From contig DAOI01000024.1 of assembly GCA_002501805.1 (NCBI GenBank), forward strand, positions 12,224-76,223: DNA of 64,000 nt, written 5' to 3'. Under the pieces are notes generated by a model. The model was not told the origin of the DNA. It was given only the letters and a program-made list of their open reading frames with translations, and ran no database searches. Source of the DNA: Euryarchaeota archaeon UBA463 (GTDB taxonomy: Archaea; Thermoplasmatota; Poseidoniia; Poseidoniales; Thalassarchaeaceae). The translations under genes were made by a program, and so were the position numbers. Positions within the stretch are counted from its first letter, which is position 1. The number at the start of each line of letters is the position of its first letter. Positions 5,500 to 38,734 of this stretch are shown here, one piece after another.

Positions 5500-6099
5500 C
5501 TACTCAGCCTCATCGAACTCTTCAGAGTCGTCCCCATTGAGTTTCAAGAAGCTTGGAAGGGTCGTTAGGCGCTTCACTGTGCACCTCAGAATGACTTCAT
5601 CTAATCTAGAGGTGGTTCGAGCTAGCTGTCCAACTGGAATTATCAGAGTATCAGGAAGTCCATGTTTCCTTTTGACCATGAAATGAGGATTAACAACCAC
5701 TCCTCTGTACGTCCTCTTGATCTTGACCATCCCAACAACGTTGCCTATGTCTATTCCATCATTGTCGAGTACAGCCCTGTCTAAGAGCTCATCAGGTGCG
5801 AATAACTCTTCAGAGATTCTAACAGTATTCCGCCACCTCCTCTGAAGCTCCCTCATCGATTTCGAGAGTTTTATCGCACCATCTGGTCTAATGCTGTGCA
5901 CTAGTTCTTTCGAGAGAGGTGCACTTTCTGCAGGTTTCCTCATGAATTCCTCAGCTATCCCCGGTACGACCTGGAGTCTCAGTGATTGCACGCATTCATC
6001 CCGGGGATGAAACCTCTCCCCTGTGATCACGCCTACGAACTTGTCACCTACGTACACGTCTCTCTGAAGTAATTCCTGTATCCTGTATTCATCATTCAT
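5500..6099 (-). CDS. Hypothetical protein, possibly PRC-barrel-like
   Basis: The ORF extends to 6147. ATG at 6099 (MNDEYRIQELL) follows a GGTGAG Shine-Dalgarno-like motif. Segments LLQRDVYVGDKFVGVITGE and LLDRAVLDNDGIDIGNVVGMVKI resemble the PRC-barrel pattern. This is a weak, by-eye assignment. Confidence 0.45.
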   Translation of the reverse strand: MNDEYRIQELLQRDVYVGDKFVGVITGERFHPRDECVQSLRLQVVPGIAEEFMRKPAESAPLSKELVHSIRPDGAIKLSKSMRELQRRWRNTVRISEELFAPDELLDRAVLDNDGIDIGNVVGMVKIKRTYRGVVVNPHFMVKRKHGLPDTLIIPVGQLARTTSRLDEVILRCTVKRLTTLPSFLKLNGDDSEEFDEAE

Positions 6100-6147
6100 T
6101 TTCTCACCAATTGGAACTGAGTTGCATCCCCCGCGCTTCCTCTTCAT

Positions 6148-6343
6148 ATCCCCAGAGTCCGGATTAGCACTTATACTATGCTATAATTAAGACTGATAAT
6201 CTAATTGAAAATTTCATTAATATCATAAATTTCCTATTGAAAATTTAAAGTGTGTTTAATTTTTTGATAGATTATCAGAATTTCTGTTTCTCCTTAATGC
6301 CAGGTTAATCCACGCCTGTTCAGAACGTTCACCAAGAACCTTG
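6148..6343. promoter_or_regulatory. AT-rich divergent intergenic region with nested inverted and direct repeats
   Basis: It lies between divergent genes (5500..6099 minus, 6344..7888 plus). An 11-bp inverted repeat CTGATAATCTA (6193-6203) / TAGATTATCAG (6268-6278) brackets two copies of ATTGAAAATTT (6204-6214 and 6236-6246). TATA-like AT tracts are present. Confidence 0.35.
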
Positions 6344-7888
6344 ATGAGCAACCTGTACCTCGGACAATCGATGTCTGCGAGTCTCGATATTCTGCATGCT
6401 ATTCGTAAGCACACTGGTAGTTGCTCTACAACCGGTCTTCCGGATGATGTCATTCTGTCTTTTATCGATGCAGATCCATCTCTAAAGATAGCCATCGATG
6501 AAGCCAAACTTTCATTCGATACGCTATTTTCTGAATCTGGTTTAGACTTGCAATCTATAGATGAGGACTCACTAATCTCCACACTTCAGTCAGACTTCGT
6601 TAATTTCTATTCTGCCGCGACTGTTAACCCCTATGTTGCTATTTCAGCCAGAGGTCCATGGATTATCACATCACATGGTGCTGTAATCCATGACAACGGC
6701 GGATATGGGATGCTCGGAATGGGACATGGTCCAGACGATGTTATCTCTTCCATGCAAAAGAACTGGGTTATGGCAAATGTAATGACCGCTTCATTCAGTC
6801 AGAAGAGACTTGCTGACAGATTAAAGAAGGAAATAGGTCATACTAGAGGGGAATGCCCATTTGATAGATTCATTTGTATGAATTCCGGTTCGGAGTCTAT
6901 GACCGTTGGAATGAGGATATCAGATGTTAATGCCTTGAAGATGACAGGACCAGGGGGTAGGCACGAAGGAAAGCCCACGAGGATGATTGCAATAGAAAGG
7001 GCATTCCACGGACGAACAGACAGGCCCGCGCAGATTTCACACTCTTGCAAGGATGGATACGATAGAAATCTGAATACCTTTCAAAATAGGGATAATCTTT
7101 CTCTGATCCCAGCAAATGATATCCATGCACTTAGGGAAGCATTTCATCAGGCGGACAGAGATGGTGTTTTCATTGAGCTACTTGCTATCGAGCCAGTTCA
7201 AGGAGAGGGTGCTCCGGGATTATGTATCGATAGGAACTTCTACGATGAGGCAAGAAAATTGACAAAGGAACATGGCTCCATGCTAATCATAGATTCAGTC
7301 CAAGCCGGCCTTAGAGGTCAAGGGTGCCTCAGTATCGTTGACTACGAAGGCTTCCAAGACTCCGAAGCTCCCGATATGGAAGCCTGGTCAAAGGCAATCA
7401 ATGCTGGACAGTTTCCTCTATCTGTTGTTGGGATGACAGCAGATGTAGCAGAGTTGTATGTCACAGGAATCTACGGCAACACTATGACTACAAATCCCCG
7501 AGCACTAGAAACAGCAATAGCAGTTCTCGACAGAATAACGCCCGATCTACGTCAAAATATTCGACAACGGGGAAAAGAGTTCGTAGAGGGTCTTGAGATT
7601 CTAATGAATGAGTTTCCAGAGGCAATTCTATCAGTCCAAGGCACTGGACTATTGGTTTGCGCTGAATTGGATCCAGACTTCTTCCCTGTAGTCGGTCACG
7701 ACAAAGTTGAGATGTGGTGTAGGAAGAATGGCCTTGGAGTCATTCACGGAGGGCTAAATGCCCTAAGATTCACTCCGCACTTTTCCATCACTACAGAAGA
7801 AATAGAAATGATATTACAGATTGTCAAGAAAGCAATAATTCACTTCTTAGAGGCCAAAAACCTCCAACAAGCAACTTCAGTAGCTTAA
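6344..7888 (+). CDS. Class III pyridoxal-phosphate-dependent aminotransferase with an N-terminal extension of about 100 aa
   Basis: Has the class III pattern: GPWIITSHGAVIHDNGGYGMLGMGH, CMNSGSES, IDSVQAGLRGQG, and a putative PLP lysine in WSKAINAGQFPLSVV. The ORF track start at 6341 is TTG, and ATG follows at 6344. Substrate is not assignable. Confidence 0.8.
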   Translation: MSNLYLGQSMSASLDILHAIRKHTGSCSTTGLPDDVILSFIDADPSLKIAIDEAKLSFDTLFSESGLDLQSIDEDSLISTLQSDFVNFYSAATVNPYVAISARGPWIITSHGAVIHDNGGYGMLGMGHGPDDVISSMQKNWVMANVMTASFSQKRLADRLKKEIGHTRGECPFDRFICMNSGSESMTVGMRISDVNALKMTGPGGRHEGKPTRMIAIERAFHGRTDRPAQISHSCKDGYDRNLNTFQNRDNLSLIPANDIHALREAFHQADRDGVFIELLAIEPVQGEGAPGLCIDRNFYDEARKLTKEHGSMLIIDSVQAGLRGQGCLSIVDYEGFQDSEAPDMEAWSKAINAGQFPLSVVGMTADVAELYVTGIYGNTMTTNPRALETAIAVLDRITPDLRQNIRQRGKEFVEGLEILMNEFPEAILSVQGTGLLVCAELDPDFFPVVGHDKVEMWCRKNGLGVIHGGLNALRFTPHFSITTEEIEMILQIVKKAIIHFLEAKNLQQATSVA

Positions 7889-26674: not shown

Positions 26675-29362
26675 ATGAATTTATTCAGTCCGCATCTCCC
26701 ATGGTTAGCTATGCCACGACGCGGGGCCATCTCGGTGATTGTGATATTCTTACTTCTATCATCTGCCTCTCAGATGGCAATAGCCAACAGTGGTGGAAAG
26801 TATAACTCTTCAAATGGATGTGGTTGTCATGGGGGTTCTGCGGCCTCTCCAACACCAACTCACAACTTTCCTACTACTTACTCGCCCGGACAGAGCTATT
26901 CATTGAATATAGGGATGAATGGGGGCGTATCTGGCTCCAAGGGAGGATTCAACTTACAGGTGTCCGATGGAACCCTAGCTACTGGGTTTGGAATTATGAA
27001 CACACAAGTCAACTCTGCAGGAAACCAAGCAACTCACCAATTCCCAGACTACAGAAGCTGGTCTTTGGACTGGACCGCTCCATCGGCTGGCTCTGGTACT
27101 GTTACATTCTCGCTCGCGGTGATGGCCGCAAATGGCAATGGAAATAATGCCGGAGATGGGTGGGCAACTCTAACTCATCAGTCAAGTGAGGACTCTGGCT
27201 CCACAAACACCCCCCCTACGGCATCATCAGTGAGCTATGTTCCATCCTCTCCAACTAAGGAGACTGGACTGGGAGTCAGCTACACATACTACGACGAGGA
27301 CGGTGATTTCGAGCAAGGCACATCTATCCACTGGTTCAGGGATGGTCTCAGAGTTACTCAGATTGATGATCTAACTGATATCCCCAATTCTTGGATTTCC
27401 AAAGATCAGAGCTGGAGAGTAGAGGTTACTCCCAATGATGGAAATGAATTTGGAGATACGGTTTCCTTAGATCCTATCTCAATAGGAAATACTGCACCGA
27501 TTGCCAGAGACTTGTCAATAGGTCCAGAATCTCCAATGGATGATGACGACCTCATATTGAACTGGGAGTACTATGACCTTGATGGAGATCCACAAGATGA
27601 CCAACAGACTACAATTTACTGGTTCCTAGATGGCTCTAGAGTCCCGGAGTTAGACGGAGAAGAAGCAGTCTCCAGCTTTATGATTAGGTCGGGTGATGAA
27701 TGGGAGGTTTCTATCACTCCTCATGATTCCTCGGACTTCGGACTAACAGTTTACAGTGGGATAGTTGTAATAGGATCTTCCAATACGGGGCCCTCAGTTT
27801 CTGCATTCATCTCCACTACTGGAAATACTGTAACTACCGACTCCTTACAACTAATTTACACCCCCTACGATCCTGATGGGGATACAATCCAGTCTACAGA
27901 AATTCGATGGTTCAGAGATTCTGCCATGGTGGCAGCATTCAATGACGAGACAGTGGTTGACCCATCCTTCACCTCCAAGGGAGAAACGTGGGAGTCCCAT
28001 GTTCGAGTATTCGATGGCCTAGTCTGGTCTGAGTGGTTCGTAACAGATTCTGTAATTATTGTTAATACCCCTCCAGTTGTCACCAATATCTCACTCTTGC
28101 CACATGGAAAACTGACAACTGACTCTGATCTGTATGTGGAATGGGAGCAATTTGATATCGACGGGGATTTGGAGCAAGCCAGTCAAATTAGATGGTGGGT
28201 TGATGGTGAGTGGATCACTGACTATGATGGCCTTTACTCAATACCATCCTCTGAGGTGGATAGAGATGAACACTGGTCAGTACAAGTCATCCCAGGAGAT
28301 GGAGAGGGCCTCGGGACCTCAATGAAGACCAACTCGAGAGTAGTTGAAAATGCTCGACCAATAATCCTAGAAGTTACTCTGGAGAACTCACCAATTGGGG
28401 ATATGGTAACCTCTCCAGACTCTTTGAATGATCTGCTGGCAATTACCATAACTAGGGATCCCGACAATGAACCTGTCGAACTCGACTACTCATGGTTCAG
28501 GGATGGTTTCATCGTTTCTGATCTAGGTGGAAACGATACTGTAAACTCGAACAGACTAGAGCCAGGACAACTTTGGGAAGTGGTAGTAACTGCGACAGAT
28601 CCATGGGGGCTGGGTACTAATTCCTCAGCTTCAGTAACAATAGCAAACCTACCTCCGGTCCCACTCTGGTCCGTAACTCCATCTCCTCCAATATCTGGGT
28701 CTGTAGCTACCTTTGATGCAACCAGCTCCTTTGATCTAGATGGAGAAGTTTCATCCTATCTGTGGATAATAGACGGTGTTGAGGTATCTGGAAGTTCTAT
28801 TGATGTCATTATGGGGCCGGGACCTCACTCTATCTCGCTGACTGTAACTGACAATATGCAGGAAGTCCAATCATCGACTTCGAGCATTGTCTATGACGAA
28901 CCGCAGACTCCTCTATCCCTTGTAGCAACTCTGGATGGAGATCAAGTGAACCTAGTTTGGGCTGGTTCATCAGATGAATATAGGATTTACAGATCTACTA
29001 CGCCGATATCTTCAGTAGTTGGACTAACGATGTTCGATGAGATTCCAGTGTGGGGTGAACCAATACCCACTCCATTGACCCCTGTCGGCTCTACTACATA
29101 TCAGGAATGGAGCGAACCCGTCCCTGTTGCTACTACACTGTACTATGTCGTGACATCAGTAGTTGAAAACCAAGAGGTAGTTTGGATTGTCGATGGACAG
29201 AATCACATCAGTGTAGATGCGACTTCCATTGCTTCAGCCACACAAGAATCAACTGAGGAAGTGTCCCCTACCATATCGTTAGCAATATCCGGATTAATGG
29301 CCACTCTGGGTGTTCTATCTCTGATATTTGCTCTCACAGAGGCAAGGAGGAAATCAGAATGA
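26675..29362 (+). CDS. Large secreted surface protein: N-terminal CGCHG module, five tandem repeats of about 96 aa, PKD-like and FN3-like domains, C-terminal TM anchor
   Basis: Has a signal peptide (RRGAISVIVIFLLLSSASQMAIA), the NGCGCHG motif, five repeats (aa about 180-660), a PKD-like segment (VATFDATSSFDLDGEVSSYLWIIDG) and a C-terminal TM helix followed by ARRKSE. An alternative start is ATG 26711. Confidence 0.7.
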   Translation: MNLFSPHLPWLAMPRRGAISVIVIFLLLSSASQMAIANSGGKYNSSNGCGCHGGSAASPTPTHNFPTTYSPGQSYSLNIGMNGGVSGSKGGFNLQVSDGTLATGFGIMNTQVNSAGNQATHQFPDYRSWSLDWTAPSAGSGTVTFSLAVMAANGNGNNAGDGWATLTHQSSEDSGSTNTPPTASSVSYVPSSPTKETGLGVSYTYYDEDGDFEQGTSIHWFRDGLRVTQIDDLTDIPNSWISKDQSWRVEVTPNDGNEFGDTVSLDPISIGNTAPIARDLSIGPESPMDDDDLILNWEYYDLDGDPQDDQQTTIYWFLDGSRVPELDGEEAVSSFMIRSGDEWEVSITPHDSSDFGLTVYSGIVVIGSSNTGPSVSAFISTTGNTVTTDSLQLIYTPYDPDGDTIQSTEIRWFRDSAMVAAFNDETVVDPSFTSKGETWESHVRVFDGLVWSEWFVTDSVIIVNTPPVVTNISLLPHGKLTTDSDLYVEWEQFDIDGDLEQASQIRWWVDGEWITDYDGLYSIPSSEVDRDEHWSVQVIPGDGEGLGTSMKTNSRVVENARPIILEVTLENSPIGDMVTSPDSLNDLLAITITRDPDNEPVELDYSWFRDGFIVSDLGGNDTVNSNRLEPGQLWEVVVTATDPWGLGTNSSASVTIANLPPVPLWSVTPSPPISGSVATFDATSSFDLDGEVSSYLWIIDGVEVSGSSIDVIMGPGPHSISLTVTDNMQEVQSSTSSIVYDEPQTPLSLVATLDGDQVNLVWAGSSDEYRIYRSTTPISSVVGLTMFDEIPVWGEPIPTPLTPVGSTTYQEWSEPVPVATTLYYVVTSVVENQEVVWIVDGQNHISVDATSIASATQESTEEVSPTISLAISGLMATLGVLSLIFALTEARRKSE
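27212..28654 (+). repeat. Five tandem in-frame coding repeats (about 288 bp / 96 aa each) inside the surface protein gene
   Basis: Each unit carries [YW]-x-x-[YF]-D-x-DGD ... [IY]-x-W-[FW]-x-DG ... W-x-V-x-[VI]-x-P-x-DG ... N-x-x-P. Examples are YTYYDEDGD/IHWFRDG/WRVEVTPNDG, WEYYDLDGD/IYWFLDG/WEVSITPHD, YTPYDPDGD/IRWFRDS, WEQFDIDGD/IRWWVDG/WSVQVIPGDG and YSWFRDG/WEVVVTATD. The copies have diverged at the DNA level. Confidence 0.8.
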
Positions 29363-33396: not shown

Positions 33397-33460
33397 CTAA
33401 CTGGAATAGCTTGGTGCACGGACAACCACTGATTATAAACTCGCCAATTCTCGATAGTAC

Positions 33461-34165
33461 ATGCTGGAGGTCAATGGGCTAAAGAAGGGCTTCGGCTCTG
33501 GCAGGAGGAGACTTGAGGTCCTGAAGGGGATAGACCTCAAAATAGAATCCGGAGAGCTCGTAGCTCTTATGGGACCTTCCGGATGTGGAAAGTCCACTCT
33601 GTTGAATATCATAGGTGGCCTTTTGGAGGCCGATTCAGGTTCCATTTCCCTTACTGAGTTCGAGTATGGTACTTATCCTCCGAGCAGAGTCGTGGATGTT
33701 AGGAGGAAAGGAGTGGGATGGATTTTCCAGGACTTCCATCTTGTGGATAGGCTATCTGCCTTGGACAATGTCATTTTCGCACTCGAGCTCTCTGGCGTAC
33801 CGTCCTCTCAAGCAGAGAGTCAGGCAATAGATGCCCTCAGGAAGGTGGGTCTGTCTGATAGGATGAACTTCATCCCCGACCAGCTTTCTGGTGGACAGAG
33901 GCAGAGAGTGGCCATAGCTAGGGCAATTTCTGGCTCCAGACCGCTTATTCTAGCCGACGAGCCAACTGGGAATCTTGATGTCAAGAGCGCTGAGGGGATA
34001 CTCGATCTGTTCAAGGAACTCTGCCAGGACTACGGAATTTCCGTACTAATGGTCACTCACGATCCCAATCTTGCGTCAAAGGCAGATAGGATGCTTCTCC
34101 TGAGGGATGGAGTAACCGCCGCTTCAGACATACGTTCTGCATGGGGAGTAGGGGGCAATCTCTGA
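33461..34165 (+). CDS. ABC transporter ATP-binding protein (MacB/LolD/FtsE-like)
   Basis: Has Walker [10 protein letters not shown], signature [14 protein letters not shown], Walker [13 protein letters not shown] and the H-loop VTHD. Confidence 0.9.
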
Positions 34166-37100
34166 TGGATCTCTACTACCAAGAAAGTCACAGGCCCGCT
34201 AGGCCAATGACATTCGGAGAGGCGACAAAGACATGCCTAGTCAAGTCCGGAGACATGAATGGTAGGGCATCAAGATCCGAATTTTGGAGCTTCTTTCTAT
34301 TCTATGTGCCAATGATGCCAGGTCTTTGGGTCATCGACCTTTTCTTTACTATGGGAATTTATAGCCTATCATCTGAGATAGGAATTGGATTATTAGATAC
34401 ACTATTATTTGTCCCAGCGTCATATCTAGTGGTCTTAATGCAACTTGTCTTCCTCTACAGTTTCACAAGTGCTACTGTACGTCGATTACATGATGTTGGA
34501 AGAACGGGGTGGTGGCTACTTCTAACTCCTACACTTATAGGTCTTCTAGTGATTGGATTTTTCCTGTTCTTGGAGGGCGAGTCCAATAAGAACAAGTATG
34601 GCGCTGTACCTACAAATGACCCCATAGAAGCCTCTATGGCCGAGATTGTATCTGCGATTCCGGATAATTTGCTAATGTCCGCGAGAAGCGCTTGGATTGG
34701 CAGAGAAAGGGTTCTGGCAGTTTTCGCAGGAGTATTCCTAGCTTCACTCGTCATCACAACGGTCCTAGCCTACTCGGCAGGCCTCAGCGGCGCATTCCTG
34801 CAGTTTTCTCTCCAAGAGGAGATATTCGATGGTAAGGTGGACTTCGCAGAAGACCCGGGCTCTGATTCAGAGGGCAGAACGAACGACTCAACATTGTGGG
34901 AGTCAGCTTGCTCTGAGTTGATAGAGATGGAAGAGATTTCCGATTGTGGACTCGTGTTTGGCAGACAGGGAGTCAGGGTCAACGGGTTCTTTGATGAGGG
35001 AGGTATCATTCCACAACCGCTCAATGCTGTGGGTGCAACAGGAACCATTGGGGACTGGACTAATGTCAGTTGGGACTACCCAGAGGCATACGACTCAGGA
35101 CCGCCAATCAATGACAAGAGGACGATCAGATTCTACGGGGATGGGATATGGGACGGAGATTTGGGCGAACGACATGCCAATCGAGTGATATACGGTTCTT
35201 GGCCGGGCTCCGGCGAGGAAGCATCTGCAAATCGCTCGATTATCCTCCCTTCAGAGATCGCCAGTAAGGCAGGGGTAGGTGTCAACGATACCATAGACAC
35301 ACTGACTTTCTCCTACACCTACGATTATCTTGGATTCGCATCCATAGCCACAGGTTTCGATGACTGTCCCGGTGAGGAGTACTTCAACCAAGAATCAGGA
35401 TACCTTTACTGTCAGGTGAACATGACGGTATACGACCTGAAGGTTGTCGCGGTTTACCAAGAAGGAGGAGCGGGAAACCCCACTTTGCTTTTCAACCCAA
35501 TAATGGTATCAGATTCGGTACTTACTGAGAATCAGAAGCTCACTCTGATGAACAATGACCACGGTTATCTCGGTATCGCCATAGATAGAAACGAGCTCCC
35601 AGCGTCTTCCACCAGGGCGGCCACAGATTGGTTGGACGGTCTGAAAGGGGATATCGAAGGAGTAAACTATACATCAGGTAATGACATAATGATTGAGTAC
35701 AATGATTTGATTTCGGGAACGATAGGCTTCCTGAATATTTTCCTCGGGATAATCAGCGTGTTCGATTACATATTGATGATACCGATAGTCGTTCTTTCGT
35801 TCTCGGTCCTAATTTATGGCCTAGTACTATCACTGGAACAGAGGAGACGGGAGATTTCGATTCATAGGGTAATTGGAGGCACGGAGGCTGGTCTGACCTC
35901 AATGATACTCAGGGAACTGGCAGTGGTGGGCGTCATTGGTTGGTTTACAGGCTACCTCTTAGCGATGGCCTCCGTTCCAGTTGTTCTGGATGCTGTCGGA
36001 TTCATGGCATTCGAGAGAAGCGACTTCAGAGTCGTTCCAACTCTGAGCGGCCTCGTTACTCTACTGATATTCTTGGTAACCGTGGGGCTTACCTTACTGT
36101 TCGGAAACTCCCGGACCAAGGACTTCCTCAGCATTGAAATTGATGAGGGAGTCAGGAGAGTCGCTACAAGAAAGAAGTCAAGGCTATGGCTACACCTGAT
36201 AGTATTCTTCGTTGGAATCCTCTCATTCCTCGAGAGTTGGATAGAAAGCAATGGGGGCTTCGGACCAATTGCCTCGAGTGGGATAAGCTCAAACTTCGTC
36301 GTAGACGGACTTTTATTCATCTTTGGTCCATTCTTCCTTTGGATAGGGGGAGCACTAGTACTGGGAAGGATAGGCGCTTCCGGACCAAGGATTTTCACCA
36401 CTCTGTTCGGCTGGAGCCCGGTTCTAACTGACATTAAGAGAGGACTGAAGGGATCTGGATCAAGCGAGTCAGTGAATAGGCTAGCAATAATACTTCTACT
36501 AACACTGTCAATAGTAACAGTGGCCGCTGTACAGGGCTACACTGGGACATTAGTAGATGAGAGGACAACCTCGGCTCAGACAGGTGCAGACCTACAGGTT
36601 CAGTTTGAAGAGCCGGTTTCCCAACAACGTGCAATGGAAGAAGTGACCCTGGCGATCCAGAGGGCTGGAGAGTCCGAGATCGACTCAATAGACTATGTGA
36701 CCTCAGTGGGGGACATATTCACCAATCAGAAAGGGGAAGGCTCTCTACTCAGGACATGGATTCTATTCGACGGGCATGAGAATACTCTCCAATGGGATGA
36801 GCAGACCATCCCAGATGATGATATTGATATTGTATCGGCTCAGTGGTCATCCTTCGGATTTACCGCTGGCTCTTCTGCCAGAAGTCAACTTGATATCTCT
36901 AGAAATGACATAGGCTCCAACACAACCATAGAGTACACATCATACAGTTTCGGCGGTTTAGACAGCGACATGAACCCAATCATCACTACTACTGTTACTG
37001 TGGCAGAAATTACCTACATGGGTGGGCACAGGTGGGTCCCAGGACTACAATCCTCTGAAGCAAATCAGGCAATAGTCATTGGAGAGGCTACCTACAAAGA

Positions 37101-37734
37101 ACTTCTAGGTCAAAACGCAGTAGATTCTTACACGTCCAATCGATGGTTCTTCGAACTTTGTGATGAGACCCAGAAAGACTGTAAGGATGCTTTGAAGACA
37201 CTAGGAGTCGAGGTATCCAATGGTGTTGGAGTGGCATCATCCAGTAACTGGGGAACGAATCATGAGGCCAACGAGAGGACAGGAGGACTAATCTTCGGGA
37301 CCCCAGGTCTTCTGAGTCTACAATTCGTGGTAGCTTCGCTAGCATCAATCGCTTCAGCCTTCGTATTCCTCTCCCTGGTCCTATCGCAAAGGAAGAAAGA
37401 ACTAGCCATCCTTCAGGCAATAGGAGCTAGTCCACAACAGGTAATGAGACTGGTTTTGTTTGAAATCATGTCTATCTTGCTAGTTAGTATGGGACTAGGA
37501 GTAATACTTGGCCTTGCAATATCCGAAGCTTTCAATGGGTTCTTCGGAGTCTTTGGATTCATCTTCCAGATTTTCCTAGGTCAAAGCGCTCCGATAGACA
37601 GAGATTTGGTCTGGCCGTGGACTGAGCTGATACTCGTCAACGCTTCCGTCCTAGTCGCTGTTGTGATAGCATTGCTTTTCACCACAAGGAGGGCGTTGAA
37701 GTCCGATCTTGCCATAGTTCTGAAGGGGGAGTGA
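34165..37734 (+). CDS. Giant ABC permease: N-terminal DUF805 domain fused to two FtsX-type permease modules with large extracytoplasmic domains
   Basis: DUF805 hallmarks are present (GRASRSEFWSFFLF..., VRRLHDVGRTGWWLLL, NKYGAVPTNDP). There are two FtsX-like modules (EISIHRVIGGTEAGLTSMILRE and ELAILQAIGASPQQVMRLVLFE), each preceded by a soluble domain of about 330-400 aa. ATG 34165 overlaps the ATPase stop as TGATG, and ATG 34141 is the alternative. Confidence 0.8.
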   Translation: MDLYYQESHRPARPMTFGEATKTCLVKSGDMNGRASRSEFWSFFLFYVPMMPGLWVIDLFFTMGIYSLSSEIGIGLLDTLLFVPASYLVVLMQLVFLYSFTSATVRRLHDVGRTGWWLLLTPTLIGLLVIGFFLFLEGESNKNKYGAVPTNDPIEASMAEIVSAIPDNLLMSARSAWIGRERVLAVFAGVFLASLVITTVLAYSAGLSGAFLQFSLQEEIFDGKVDFAEDPGSDSEGRTNDSTLWESACSELIEMEEISDCGLVFGRQGVRVNGFFDEGGIIPQPLNAVGATGTIGDWTNVSWDYPEAYDSGPPINDKRTIRFYGDGIWDGDLGERHANRVIYGSWPGSGEEASANRSIILPSEIASKAGVGVNDTIDTLTFSYTYDYLGFASIATGFDDCPGEEYFNQESGYLYCQVNMTVYDLKVVAVYQEGGAGNPTLLFNPIMVSDSVLTENQKLTLMNNDHGYLGIAIDRNELPASSTRAATDWLDGLKGDIEGVNYTSGNDIMIEYNDLISGTIGFLNIFLGIISVFDYILMIPIVVLSFSVLIYGLVLSLEQRRREISIHRVIGGTEAGLTSMILRELAVVGVIGWFTGYLLAMASVPVVLDAVGFMAFERSDFRVVPTLSGLVTLLIFLVTVGLTLLFGNSRTKDFLSIEIDEGVRRVATRKKSRLWLHLIVFFVGILSFLESWIESNGGFGPIASSGISSNFVVDGLLFIFGPFFLWIGGALVLGRIGASGPRIFTTLFGWSPVLTDIKRGLKGSGSSESVNRLAIILLLTLSIVTVAAVQGYTGTLVDERTTSAQTGADLQVQFEEPVSQQRAMEEVTLAIQRAGESEIDSIDYVTSVGDIFTNQKGEGSLLRTWILFDGHENTLQWDEQTIPDDDIDIVSAQWSSFGFTAGSSARSQLDISRNDIGSNTTIEYTSYSFGGLDSDMNPIITTTVTVAEITYMGGHRWVPGLQSSEANQAIVIGEATYKELLGQNAVDSYTSNRWFFELCDETQKDCKDALKTLGVEVSNGVGVASSSNWGTNHEANERTGGLIFGTPGLLSLQFVVASLASIASAFVFLSLVLSQRKKELAILQAIGASPQQVMRLVLFEIMSILLVSMGLGVILGLAISEAFNGFFGVFGFIFQIFLGQSAPIDRDLVWPWTELILVNASVLVAVVIALLFTTRRALKSDLAIVLKGE

Positions 37735-37738
37735 TAGA

Positions 37739-38734
37739 ATGGACGAAAGCTTGGTAATTCTGGAAGCCAAAAATATGTACCATATCTACGAGAGCCTGAG
37801 TCTCGAGGGGAACGTTGTCGCCTTGAGAGGCCTCAATGTCATAATCAAGGAGGGTGAGGCCGTAGCTGTAATCGGGCCCTCGGGATCAGGTAAGTCCACT
37901 CTTCTGAAGTGCCTAGGTGGGCTAATGAAACCATCATCCGGTTCGGTTTCCTTAGGGGGCAGAGAGATGATCAGGATGACTGGTAATGAACTCGTAAAAC
38001 TTCGGCAGGAAACAGTCTCTTTCATCTTCCAAGACTCAAATTTACTTCCTGATCTAAATGCGTTAGATAATGTTGCACAACCACTCAGGCACCAGGGAGT
38101 GATGCCAGGTCCAGCTAGGGCCAAGGCAATGGAGCTACTTGAGAAACTAGCGATGGGAGACAGATGGATGGGAATGCCAGAGCAACTTTCTGGAGGGGAG
38201 CAACAACGAGTAGCTATAGCCAGGGCACTAATAACCAACCCAAAGCTAATTCTGGCGGATGAGCCAACCGGTGCATTGGACCCTATAACTAGCAGAGAGG
38301 TTCTAGAGCTGTTCGAGAGGCTGCATAAGGAAGAGAATGTGGCATTCTTGCTTGTGACTCACAACAGGGACGTAGCATACTTCTGTGAGAGGTCCTTAGA
38401 GCTTAGAGACGGAAGGTTCGTCGCGCAACATGGAACCGATTTCGATATGGCAGATCTCTCAGATACTAGAGAACTGATTATAGATGAAACCGGGACAATA
38501 ACACTACCTCCAGACCTCCTTCTAAAGCTAGGTGGGCCGGGTAGATTCGATGTCCCTGATGCGGACAGAGATTCCCTGAAGCTGGAGAGGGTTGAGGACG
38601 AGAAAATCAAGGTATCATCCAAGACTAAGAGAGTACTAGCACCAACCTGTCCTGCTTGTAATCATGACTACTCAGACTCAACAGATCAACTGTGTCCCGA
38701 ATGTGGTTCCAGTAGGCCCATGATTCAAGCCTGA
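37739..38734 (+). CDS. ABC transporter ATP-binding protein with a C-terminal extension (AbrB/SpoVT-like segment plus zinc ribbon)
   Basis: Has Walker [24 protein letters not shown] and [12 protein letters not shown] tail of about 100 aa contains TGTITLPPDLLLKLGGPGRFDV (AbrB-like looped-hinge pattern) and CPACNH...x12...CPECG (4-Cys ribbon). Confidence 0.85.
   Translation: MDESLVILEAKNMYHIYESLSLEGNVVALRGLNVIIKEGEAVAVIGPSGSGKSTLLKCLGGLMKPSSGSVSLGGREMIRMTGNELVKLRQETVSFIFQDSNLLPDLNALDNVAQPLRHQGVMPGPARAKAMELLEKLAMGDRWMGMPEQLSGGEQQRVAIARALITNPKLILADEPTGALDPITSREVLELFERLHKEENVAFLLVTHNRDVAYFCERSLELRDGRFVAQHGTDFDMADLSDTRELIIDETGTITLPPDLLLKLGGPGRFDVPDADRDSLKLERVEDEKIKVSSKTKRVLAPTCPACNHDYSDSTDQLCPECGSSRPMIQA

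Follow-up and report, generated by a model that had tools for sequence, protein, structure and literature searches.

What kind of machine is built from a giant permease that begins with a DUF805 domain and is flanked by two different ATP-binding cassette (ABC) ATPases? This question is raised by three packed genes, here termed ATPase1, permease and ATPase2, in a stretch of 64,000 nucleotides (nt) of Euryarchaeota archaeon UBA463 (assembly GCA_002501805.1, contig DAOI01000024.1, positions 12,224 to 76,223 of the forward strand; this whole stretch is called the window). The organism belongs to the family Thalassarchaeaceae of the order Poseidoniales. Type VII ABC machines such as FtsEX, LolCDE, MacB, YbbAP and BceAB drive key processes of the bacterial envelope; a full-text literature search found no study of type VII ABC machines in archaea. 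Taken as a whole, the locus is best explained as one operon encoding an archaeal type VII machine of the MacB/FtsX superfamily and of the YbbP kind, and we estimate the probability of this explanation at roughly 0.75. The MacB/FtsX/YbbP type as such is known. What is new is the combination of a YbbP-like permease with a two-ATPase motor and a zinc-ribbon tail, to which in this genome the DUF805 fusion is added.

The features referred to below are as follows (window coordinates; aa, amino acids; TM, transmembrane):

33461..34165, + strand: ATPase1, 234 aa, LolD/MacB/DevA-type, no tail (Pfam ABC_tran, E 2e-34)
34165..37734, + strand: permease, 1189 aa, DUF805 and YbbP-like tandem FtsX, 3+4+2+4 predicted TM helices (Pfam, AlphaFold2, Foldseek)
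34165..34605, + strand: DUF805 module, residues 1-147 (Pfam match at residues 30-147, E 1.2e-19; alignment with relatives)
34606..34710, + strand: linker and amphipathic N-terminal helix of the permease core, PDNLLMSARSAWIGRER (N-terminal comparison; modelled helix 158-178)
34819..35703, + strand: ectodomain 1, residues ~219-513, ~295 aa (secondary structure of the model, invariant columns, Foldseek)
36184..36378, + strand: two predicted linker TM helices, residues 674-695 and 711-738 (model; YbbP topology)
36550..37299, + strand: ectodomain 2, residues ~796-1045, ~250 aa (model, invariant columns)
37739..38734, + strand: ATPase2, 331 aa in all (open reading frame)
37739..38422, + strand: nucleotide-binding domain of ATPase2, residues 1-228 (Pfam ABC_tran, E 6.5e-34)
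38459..38608, + strand: tail segment of ATPase2, predicted beta-beta-alpha-beta, RELIIDETGTITLPPDLLLKLGGPGRFDV...LKLERV, AbrB-like in pattern only (invariants of alignment A2)
38648..38707, + strand: predicted C4 zinc ribbon of ATPase2, CPAC-x11-CPEC, then GSSRP (Cys304, 307, 319 and 322 invariant)

Predicted fold of the permease

Two stretches of the permease matched the FtsX family (PF02687, E 1.4e-19 in Pfam), and both halves were also matched in a scan of the organism's own genome. The structure was modelled with AlphaFold2 from 47 homologues (mean predicted local distance difference test score, pLDDT, 70; predicted template modelling score, pTM, 0.55). In the model, three DUF805 helices (residues 37-72, 88-110 and 124-137) and an amphipathic helix (158-178) precede the first FtsX half, which consists of TM1 (180-218), ectodomain 1 and then TM2, the coupling helix, TM3 and TM4 (514-656). 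Helices 674-695 and 711-738 connect the two FtsX halves in the manner of TM5-6 of YbbP, and the second half comprises TM1' (768-795), ectodomain 2 and TM2'-TM4' (1046-1186). The two coupling helices fall at residues ~561-570 and ~1086-1090. When the model was compared with the PDB by Foldseek, the top matches were E. coli YbbP structures (9ge6/9ge7, E 4e-13 to 6e-13, about 1070 aligned columns), followed by BceB, LolE/LolC, MacB, a pneumococcal MacB-like transporter, HrtB and FtsX. Ectodomain 1, which is of mixed alpha/beta structure, matched the periplasmic domains of LolE, LolC and MacB. Six cysteines of the ectodomains are invariant, Cys249/261 and Cys401/416 in ectodomain 1 and Cys999/1006 in ectodomain 2.

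The 4+2+4 topology with an ectodomain after helix 1 of each half agrees, as far as a model of moderate confidence goes, with the YbbP-like subclass, and by this model the permease is a single-chain, 10-helix protein of the YbbP/BceB type. The initial annotation of this DNA had described an atypical ABC system, compared with MacB-type systems, whose two FtsX modules carry extracytoplasmic domains of 330-400 aa. The two modules and the FtsX/MacB superfamily were borne out; the nearest known proteins, however, are of the YbbP/BceB type and not MacB proper, the helix boundaries of the model leave about 295 and 250 aa for the ectodomains, and the two modelled linker helices between the modules were absent from that description.

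E. coli YbbAP is a pseudo-symmetric 4+2+4 assembly with two YbbA per YbbP and Porter/Sabre ectodomains, and its mechanotransmission cycle extracts hydrophobic compounds (PMC12646458). The cassette resembles YbbAP(-TesA) (PDB 9GE6/9GE7/9GE8) in the single-chain 4+2+4 permease, the two coupling helices, the LolD/MacB-type nucleotide-binding domains (NBDs) and the large ectodomain after the first helix of each half. In contrast to YbbP, which binds two YbbA, the permease is flanked by two different ATPase genes in every lineage examined. Further differences are the tailed ATPase2, the larger and cysteine-rich ectodomains, DUF805, the archaeal host and a sequence identity of only ~12%, and no TesA-like partner was seen. 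With BceAB, LolCDE, MacB, FtsEX and HrtBA the cassette shares the FtsX-type four-helix bundle, an extracytoplasmic domain and the NBD type, but all of these systems lack a heterodimeric motor, and neither DUF805 nor a zinc-ribbon tail is part of any of them. LolCDE has, like the cassette, two non-identical membrane halves, but these are encoded by two permease genes and served by one ATPase; BceAB differs in having one BceB ectodomain and a homodimeric BceA.

Two size variants were seen among the relatives. The permeases of loci L081-L085 (family Poseidoniaceae, Marine Group IIa, MGIIa) are ~1200 aa long and lack DUF805; the profile match stops at ~811-831 and restarts at ~831-836, an indication that ectodomain 2 has a large insertion specific to this lineage. 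In UBA121 (L048:7001-10969) the permease open reading frame (ORF) is 1322 aa, about 108 residues more than that of the window, and is preceded by two overlapping ATPase1-like ORFs (5966-6697 and 6273-7001), an arrangement suggestive of local duplication or of an assembly error in that MAG (metagenome-assembled genome).

Two different ATPases

That the two ATPases are distinct proteins, as proposed initially, was confirmed: both are of the LolD/MacB/DevA type and they are 40-46% identical to each other. Their best NCBIfam matches were DevA, LolD, YbbA, MacB and FtsE, each under the equivalog cut-off, and sequence matches of ATPase2 in the PDB were MJ0796, LolD, MacB, YtrE and YbbA (1e-46 to 1e-52). 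The Walker A motif GPSGCGKS, the signature LSGGQ, the Walker B DE and the H-loop LMVTHD of ATPase1 are retained in 68 species loci, and GPSGSGKS, FIFQ, LSGGE, DE and the H-loop of ATPase2 in 72 loci. Judged by these motifs both proteins are catalytically complete and neither is degenerate; the Walker B glutamates are E167 in ATPase1 and E175 in ATPase2. Two competent but different ATPases on a single-chain permease would make the cassette a natural system for division of labour between ATP sites.

The same genome provides a contrast. A second FtsX system, on contig C26 (L149:4891-8058, minus strand), consists of a 233-aa ATPase and an 818-aa tandem FtsX permease; it has a single ATPase, with neither a second ATPase nor a tail, and adjoins a 644-aa EF-hand protein. 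The presence of this one-ATPase system shows the two-ATPase form to be a lineage of its own. From metatranscriptome data, high transcription of an 'ftsX-like permease' has been reported for an MGIIa MAG (PMC9723583); since the genome of the window, which belongs to MGIIb, holds two FtsX systems, that report is not assignable to the cassette.

Conservation of the two-ATPase cassette

Wherever the contig extends far enough, the 80 Poseidoniales species loci all have the order ATPase1, permease, tailed ATPase2. The permease profile matched 13 of 17 genomes of Thalassarchaeaceae, 28 of 30 of Poseidoniaceae and 6 of 7 of the remaining, third family in the class, and the genome of the window holds one copy. 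The same three genes occur in other Thermoplasmatota families with ~25% identity in the permease and ~42% in ATPase2, tail included, and the same layout is present on a JGI contig and on a Heimdallarchaeota contig, the latter truncated upstream of the permease. By these comparisons the two-ATPase layout is a trait that a whole archaeal clade has conserved, not a quirk of this locus. Permease groups of ~67% and ~57% identity that occur in the same MAGs (L040/L044 and L019/L045) were considered as paralogues, a possibility that was set aside: because they share synteny with the Taw1 (wyosine) and IMPDH genes, and because the genome of the window has one copy, they are read as orthologues in mixed bins.

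Marine Groups II and III are among the most abundant planktonic archaea. The cassette is near-universal in these groups and reaches other Thermoplasmatota and Asgard archaea, which makes it probably a core envelope machine.

The DUF805 module

DUF805 (PF05656) was recognized at permease residues 30-147 with 71.2 bits against a cut-off of 25.7, covering profile positions 3-111 of 111, and with 77.5 bits in the genome-wide scan; a complete DUF805 domain in front of two FtsX modules had indeed been described initially. The module contains three hydrophobic helices as well as the signature motifs GRASRSEFW, RRLHDVGRTGWW and N-x-YGAVPTN. It is collinear with full-length stand-alone Poseidoniales DUF805 proteins (L120-L125) through the C-terminal YG-x-VPTN, and shares with them GRxxRSE(Y/F)W, RR(L/F)HD-x-G-x-SGW and N-x-YG-x-VPTN; unlike those proteins, it is joined by a ~13-residue linker to a 1040-aa ABC permease. 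In the alignment of fused and stand-alone forms (A6), G33, R34, A35, R37, S38, E39, W41, R106, R107, D110, N143, G146, P149 and N151 are invariant. The conserved permease core begins at PDNLxM-x-A-x-SAW, residue ~165 (invariant columns of alignment A1 from P166), and relatives without DUF805 have short, variable N-termini and start near the residues of the core helix.

Stand-alone members of the family presumably include E. coli YhaH/YhaI. No literature on DUF805 function was found, none of 12 listed titles dealing with it and the main text of PMC9427106 being without the term. The recurrent fusion is the first physical, testable context for this widespread orphan family, which occurs in E. 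coli and many bacteria, and it also constrains topology. Since the permease core opens with a cytoplasmic amphipathic helix, a basic WxGRER cluster and TM1, the C-terminus of DUF805 should be cytoplasmic in the fusion. With three helices, the N-terminus would then lie outside, and GRASRSEFW and RRLHDVGRTGWW at the outer face. A stand-alone DUF805 protein of a Poseidoniaceae genome (G172, L151:5297-5860) carries a very acidic N-terminal CPHC...CPFC zinc ribbon. Such an acidic ribbon may be compatible with translocation of the N-tail but proves nothing; the alternative is a cytoplasmic N-tail.

Domain matches to DUF805 were obtained in 84 of 201 genomes of the order, mostly as stand-alone frames of 120-300 aa and in both families; outside the class Poseidoniia it was found in 1 of ~295 genomes of the phylum searched. 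Fused frames (at least 1149 aa) are limited to the genus of the window and to single genomes of two other Thalassarchaeaceae genera. Within the genus, 9 of 12 genomes have DUF805, seven of them in frames of at least 1189 aa, one in a 537-aa frame and one as a stand-alone protein of 192 aa. In a permease-core tree of species genomes the fused forms stand at two places, namely in a 10-member fused clade that includes the window (support 100) and, within an unfused clade, in Thalassarchaeum betae. In a larger tree with metagenome proteins, well-supported branches force at least six changes of label, some 'unfused' rows of which may be truncated calls.

A rival explanation, which we consider unlikely, is that DUF805 is neutral baggage, a gene that was inserted between ATPase1 and the permease and is uninformative on function. 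The fusion is patchy and labile, being missing in two genomes of the same genus and in most of the order, stand-alone DUF805 genes lie in unrelated contexts, and evolution is fast, the DUF805 domains of different fused groups being 30-47% identical. Against this, the same fusion position recurs in at least two separate parts of the tree, the label changes in the larger tree argue likewise, and one fused group is nearer to stand-alone DUF805s (40% identity) than to other fused groups (31-35%). Moreover, the fused copies have kept every hallmark residue without change, an argument that a working module is under selection. From these sequence comparisons we read DUF805 as an optional accessory module under selection that was repeatedly gained or lost, neither baggage nor a core part of the machine. 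The initial suggestion that the fusion could give a functional context for DUF805 thus holds as a lead; it is not a demonstration, as the module is labile and the stand-alone copies sampled do not lie beside the cassette.

Neighbouring genes and possible partners

Two GT4 glycosyltransferase genes lie directly upstream of the cassette, a neighbourhood to which the initial annotation had drawn attention for a possible exported substrate. In 52-56 of 79 loci GT4 genes remain close by, at a distance of a few kb; in Poseidoniaceae they lie on the downstream side, next to a GDP-mannose dehydratase. The synteny thus stood up to the survey; the link to a substrate is only suggestive, gene order being broadly conserved here, with Taw1 and IMPDH equally syntenic with the cassette.

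A more direct hint comes from another Thermoplasmatota family, in which three genomes, representing two genera, encode a surface protein of ~800 aa that continues in frame into ATPase1 (L138:1832-4948, L154:2772-5867 and L155:2992-6063). The surface protein comprises an N-terminal signal/TM segment, CARDB, Big_7 and PKD domains and a C-terminal TM anchor (LIFGFVIILIPVIIVIIVVRKRR), and is followed by a linker of ~55 aa and ATPase1. On the JGI contig a large PKD protein precedes the cassette. In the window itself an 895-aa surface protein with a C-terminal TM anchor and a basic tail (…LGVLSLIFALTEARRKSE) is encoded upstream, at 26675-29362; its 'FD-x-DG … W-x-x-DG' repeats weakly resemble (E 0.001) the ectodomain to which ATPase1 is joined in the other family. 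As this similarity is at the level of repeats only, homology of the two proteins is not claimed. FtsEX works with EnvC/PcsB and YbbAP with TesA; by analogy, and from the fusions above, there is a hint that the archaeal machine may work alongside an Ig-like surface protein, and the fusion in the sister lineage points to a testable class of partner. The synteny of GT4 and surface-protein genes is a further hint of mechanotransmission to an extracytoplasmic partner or substrate.

Proposed mechanism and an alternative function

The following picture would fit the predicted structures. The single permease chain would supply both membrane halves, with 4+2+4 helices and two Porter/Sabre-like ectodomains, and the motor would consist of the two different ATPases, which presumably sit one per coupling helix in a 1:1:1 complex. 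Cytoplasmic ATP binding and hydrolysis, at two active sites, would be converted into movement of two non-equivalent ectodomains (mechanotransmission). This movement could extract or hand over a hydrophobic or lipid-anchored component of the envelope, or drive a surface partner; solute pumping across the membrane seems a less likely output. The tail of ATPase2, a small beta-rich segment and a C4 ribbon on the cytoplasmic side, would most likely serve motor regulation or partner docking. Where fused, DUF805 may be an accessory membrane module beside TM1 of the first half, and its outward-facing arginines are possibly there for an anionic lipid head group.

A bolder version of this scheme can be formulated, which we regard as improbable in its entirety. 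According to it, DUF805 would be a dedicated accessory subunit of type VII ABC mechanotransmitters, acting in trans when stand-alone, and its outward arginines would capture an anionic lipid-linked substrate, e.g. a polyprenyl-phosphate-linked glycan or a lipid-anchored surface protein; the cassette would power the assembly or anchoring of Ig-like/PKD surface glycoproteins, and the zinc-ribbon tail would gate an asymmetric motor.

Several observations weigh against the interpretation as a YbbP-like mechanotransmitter with accessory modules. The confidence of the permease model is only moderate (pLDDT 70, pTM 0.55), and in the monomer model of the tail the AbrB-like segment has a pLDDT of 55-62. 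In the N-out/C-in orientation of DUF805, the RRLHD loop and six basic residues of its N-tail would be on the outside, contrary to the positive-inside rule. In two members of the window's genus, G057 and G155, the permease is unfused; G155 has a separate DUF805 gene and in G057 none was found. Inspection of ORFs next to stand-alone DUF805 genes in four genomes gave no evident ABC genes. Finally, the GT4 synteny may only mirror the broadly conserved gene order.

Could the cassette rather be a MacB/BceAB-like resistance or efflux pump for antimicrobial peptides or toxic lipophilic compounds, with DUF805 and the tail in sensory or regulatory roles? BceB and MacB rank high in the structural comparison, one relative is annotated as 'ABC-type antimicrobial peptide transport system permease', and extraction of hydrophobic compounds is what YbbAP does (PMC12646458). 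We nevertheless hold a resistance function to be quite unlikely. The cassette is single-copy and near-universal in a class of streamlined genomes of 1.3-2 Mb, it lies in conserved synteny with housekeeping genes (Taw1, IMPDH), and no BceRS-like two-component genes or adaptor protein adjoin it. Its universality and housekeeping synteny fit a core function in the envelope better than an accessory resistance trait.

The tail of ATPase2

The extension of ATPase2, ~100 aa long, is 64-97% identical across the order. Its invariant positions in alignment A2 are R244, D249, G252, T253, L256-D259, G265-F270 and Cys304/307/319/322, and the four ribbon cysteines (CPAC...CPEC) are invariant in 45 tails. 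A search of 1.84 billion representative proteins with the tail profile returned 60 proteins, mostly fragments; the full-length ones were all ABC ATPases of 332-349 aa. In a profile search of the PDB the ribbon matched the rubredoxin-like domain of rubrerythrin (E 0.0027), and it was modelled with a pLDDT of ~80. Pfam ribbon families stayed under their cut-offs for the window protein, and a distant relative (P0299) passes Zn_Ribbon_1. Sequence and model thus support the prediction that the tail ends in a C4 zinc ribbon.

C-terminal regulatory domains are known from other ABC ATPases, such as the C2 domain of MetN and the TOBE-type domains of ModC and MalK, which are present on both identical NBDs and dimerise. 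The tail of ATPase2 is similarly an extra cytoplasmic domain after the NBD, placed to regulate the motor, but it is on one NBD only and its parts match none of these domains.

The segment in front of the ribbon had been described as AbrB/SpoVT-like, with DNA or partner binding or regulation of the transporter as suggested roles of the tail. The length of the tail and its zinc ribbon were upheld; the AbrB/SpoVT assignment did not reach significance, and the suggestion of DNA binding hangs on the same sub-threshold matches. We find it very unlikely that the segment is a true AbrB/SpoVT swapped-hairpin DNA-binding domain which would make ATPase2 double as a transcription regulator. The segment does contain the motif (V/I)D-x-x-G-x-(I/V)-x-(L/I)-P-x-x-(L/I)-x-x-x-LG, its strand-strand-helix-strand order in the monomer model is compatible with this fold, and Pfam MazE_antitoxin (PF04014) matched 18 residues of the segment, but with E 0.023 and 15.1 bits against a cut-off of 24.7. 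Foldseek matches of the tail model included AbrB, SpoVT, MazE, C68 or Sso7c4 in 10 of the 29 listed, all with E at or above 1.1, and comparison by hhalign with the N-domains of archaeal AbrB proteins, from a narrow as well as a widened alignment, gave a probability of 15-18%, with 36 columns in register. Full-length ATPase2 had no PF04014 match at E <= 0.1 and the distant relatives had none; a PDB search with the segment profile matched nothing; and in the genome of the window PF04014 gave only two matches, far under the cut-off (E 1.6 and 5.5, 8.2-9.8 bits). AbrB domains need a second copy to fold, so with one tail per presumed complex a swapped-hairpin barrel would require the complexes to dimerise, and a membrane-tethered ATPase is improbable as a DNA binder. 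We rate the odds that the segment has an AbrB-like fold as roughly even, and DNA binding by the tail as unlikely.

Elsewhere in the phylum most PF04014 matches fell at the N-terminus of PhoU-like proteins of ~340 aa (L091, L095, L100-L102, L107, L111-L119), and among Thalassarchaeaceae only 2 of 9 genomes had a match, among Poseidoniaceae 7 of 15. The ~340-aa frames were considered as AbrB-tailed ATPases and rejected, being AbrB-PhoU proteins without a Walker A motif.

Reality of the fusion and gene layout

The fusion of DUF805 to the permease is real and not an assembly join. Chains that combine PF05656 with PF02687 and are 62-94% identical to that of the window are encoded on many contigs from ENA, JGI, NCBI, Tara and Logan, and gene callers report one gene with both domains between the two ATPases. 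The fusion was found in ~13 loci (one genome per species), including a 698-kb contig of a long-read MAG (L012). A chimera of assembly or binning, or an artefact of gene calling that hides separate genes, can for practical purposes be dismissed: the source genome is admittedly a MAG of 35 contigs with 84% completeness, and many close relatives lack DUF805 on the permease, but the in-frame, stop-free fusion with its conserved linker recurs in dozens of independent contigs from the five sources and in species genomes from different studies, ATPase1 overlaps the DUF805 start by 4 nt, and the guanine-cytosine (GC) content is level over the whole cassette, fusion junction included.

The three genes are ORFs of the + strand, and their tight packing, as first described, was read back from the sequence. 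The end of ATPase1 and the start of the permease overlap at TGATG (34163-34167), and a 4-nt gap, 'taga' (37735-37738), separates the permease from ATPase2. The permease starts at ATG 34165, as in homologues (MDIYYQESHRP / MMDFFYEDDHRP); a longer ORF from 34141 was discarded, since the homologues begin at this ATG. At its 3' end ATPase2 reaches 10 nt into the convergent Taw1 gene. One further feature was read from the sequence upstream:

33433..33439, + strand: candidate archaeal TATA box TTATAAA, ~25 nt 5' of the ATPase1 ATG, in the 64-nt gap after the GT4 gene

The position of this box suggests that the three genes may have a promoter of their own and be transcribed as a leaderless or near-leaderless operon.

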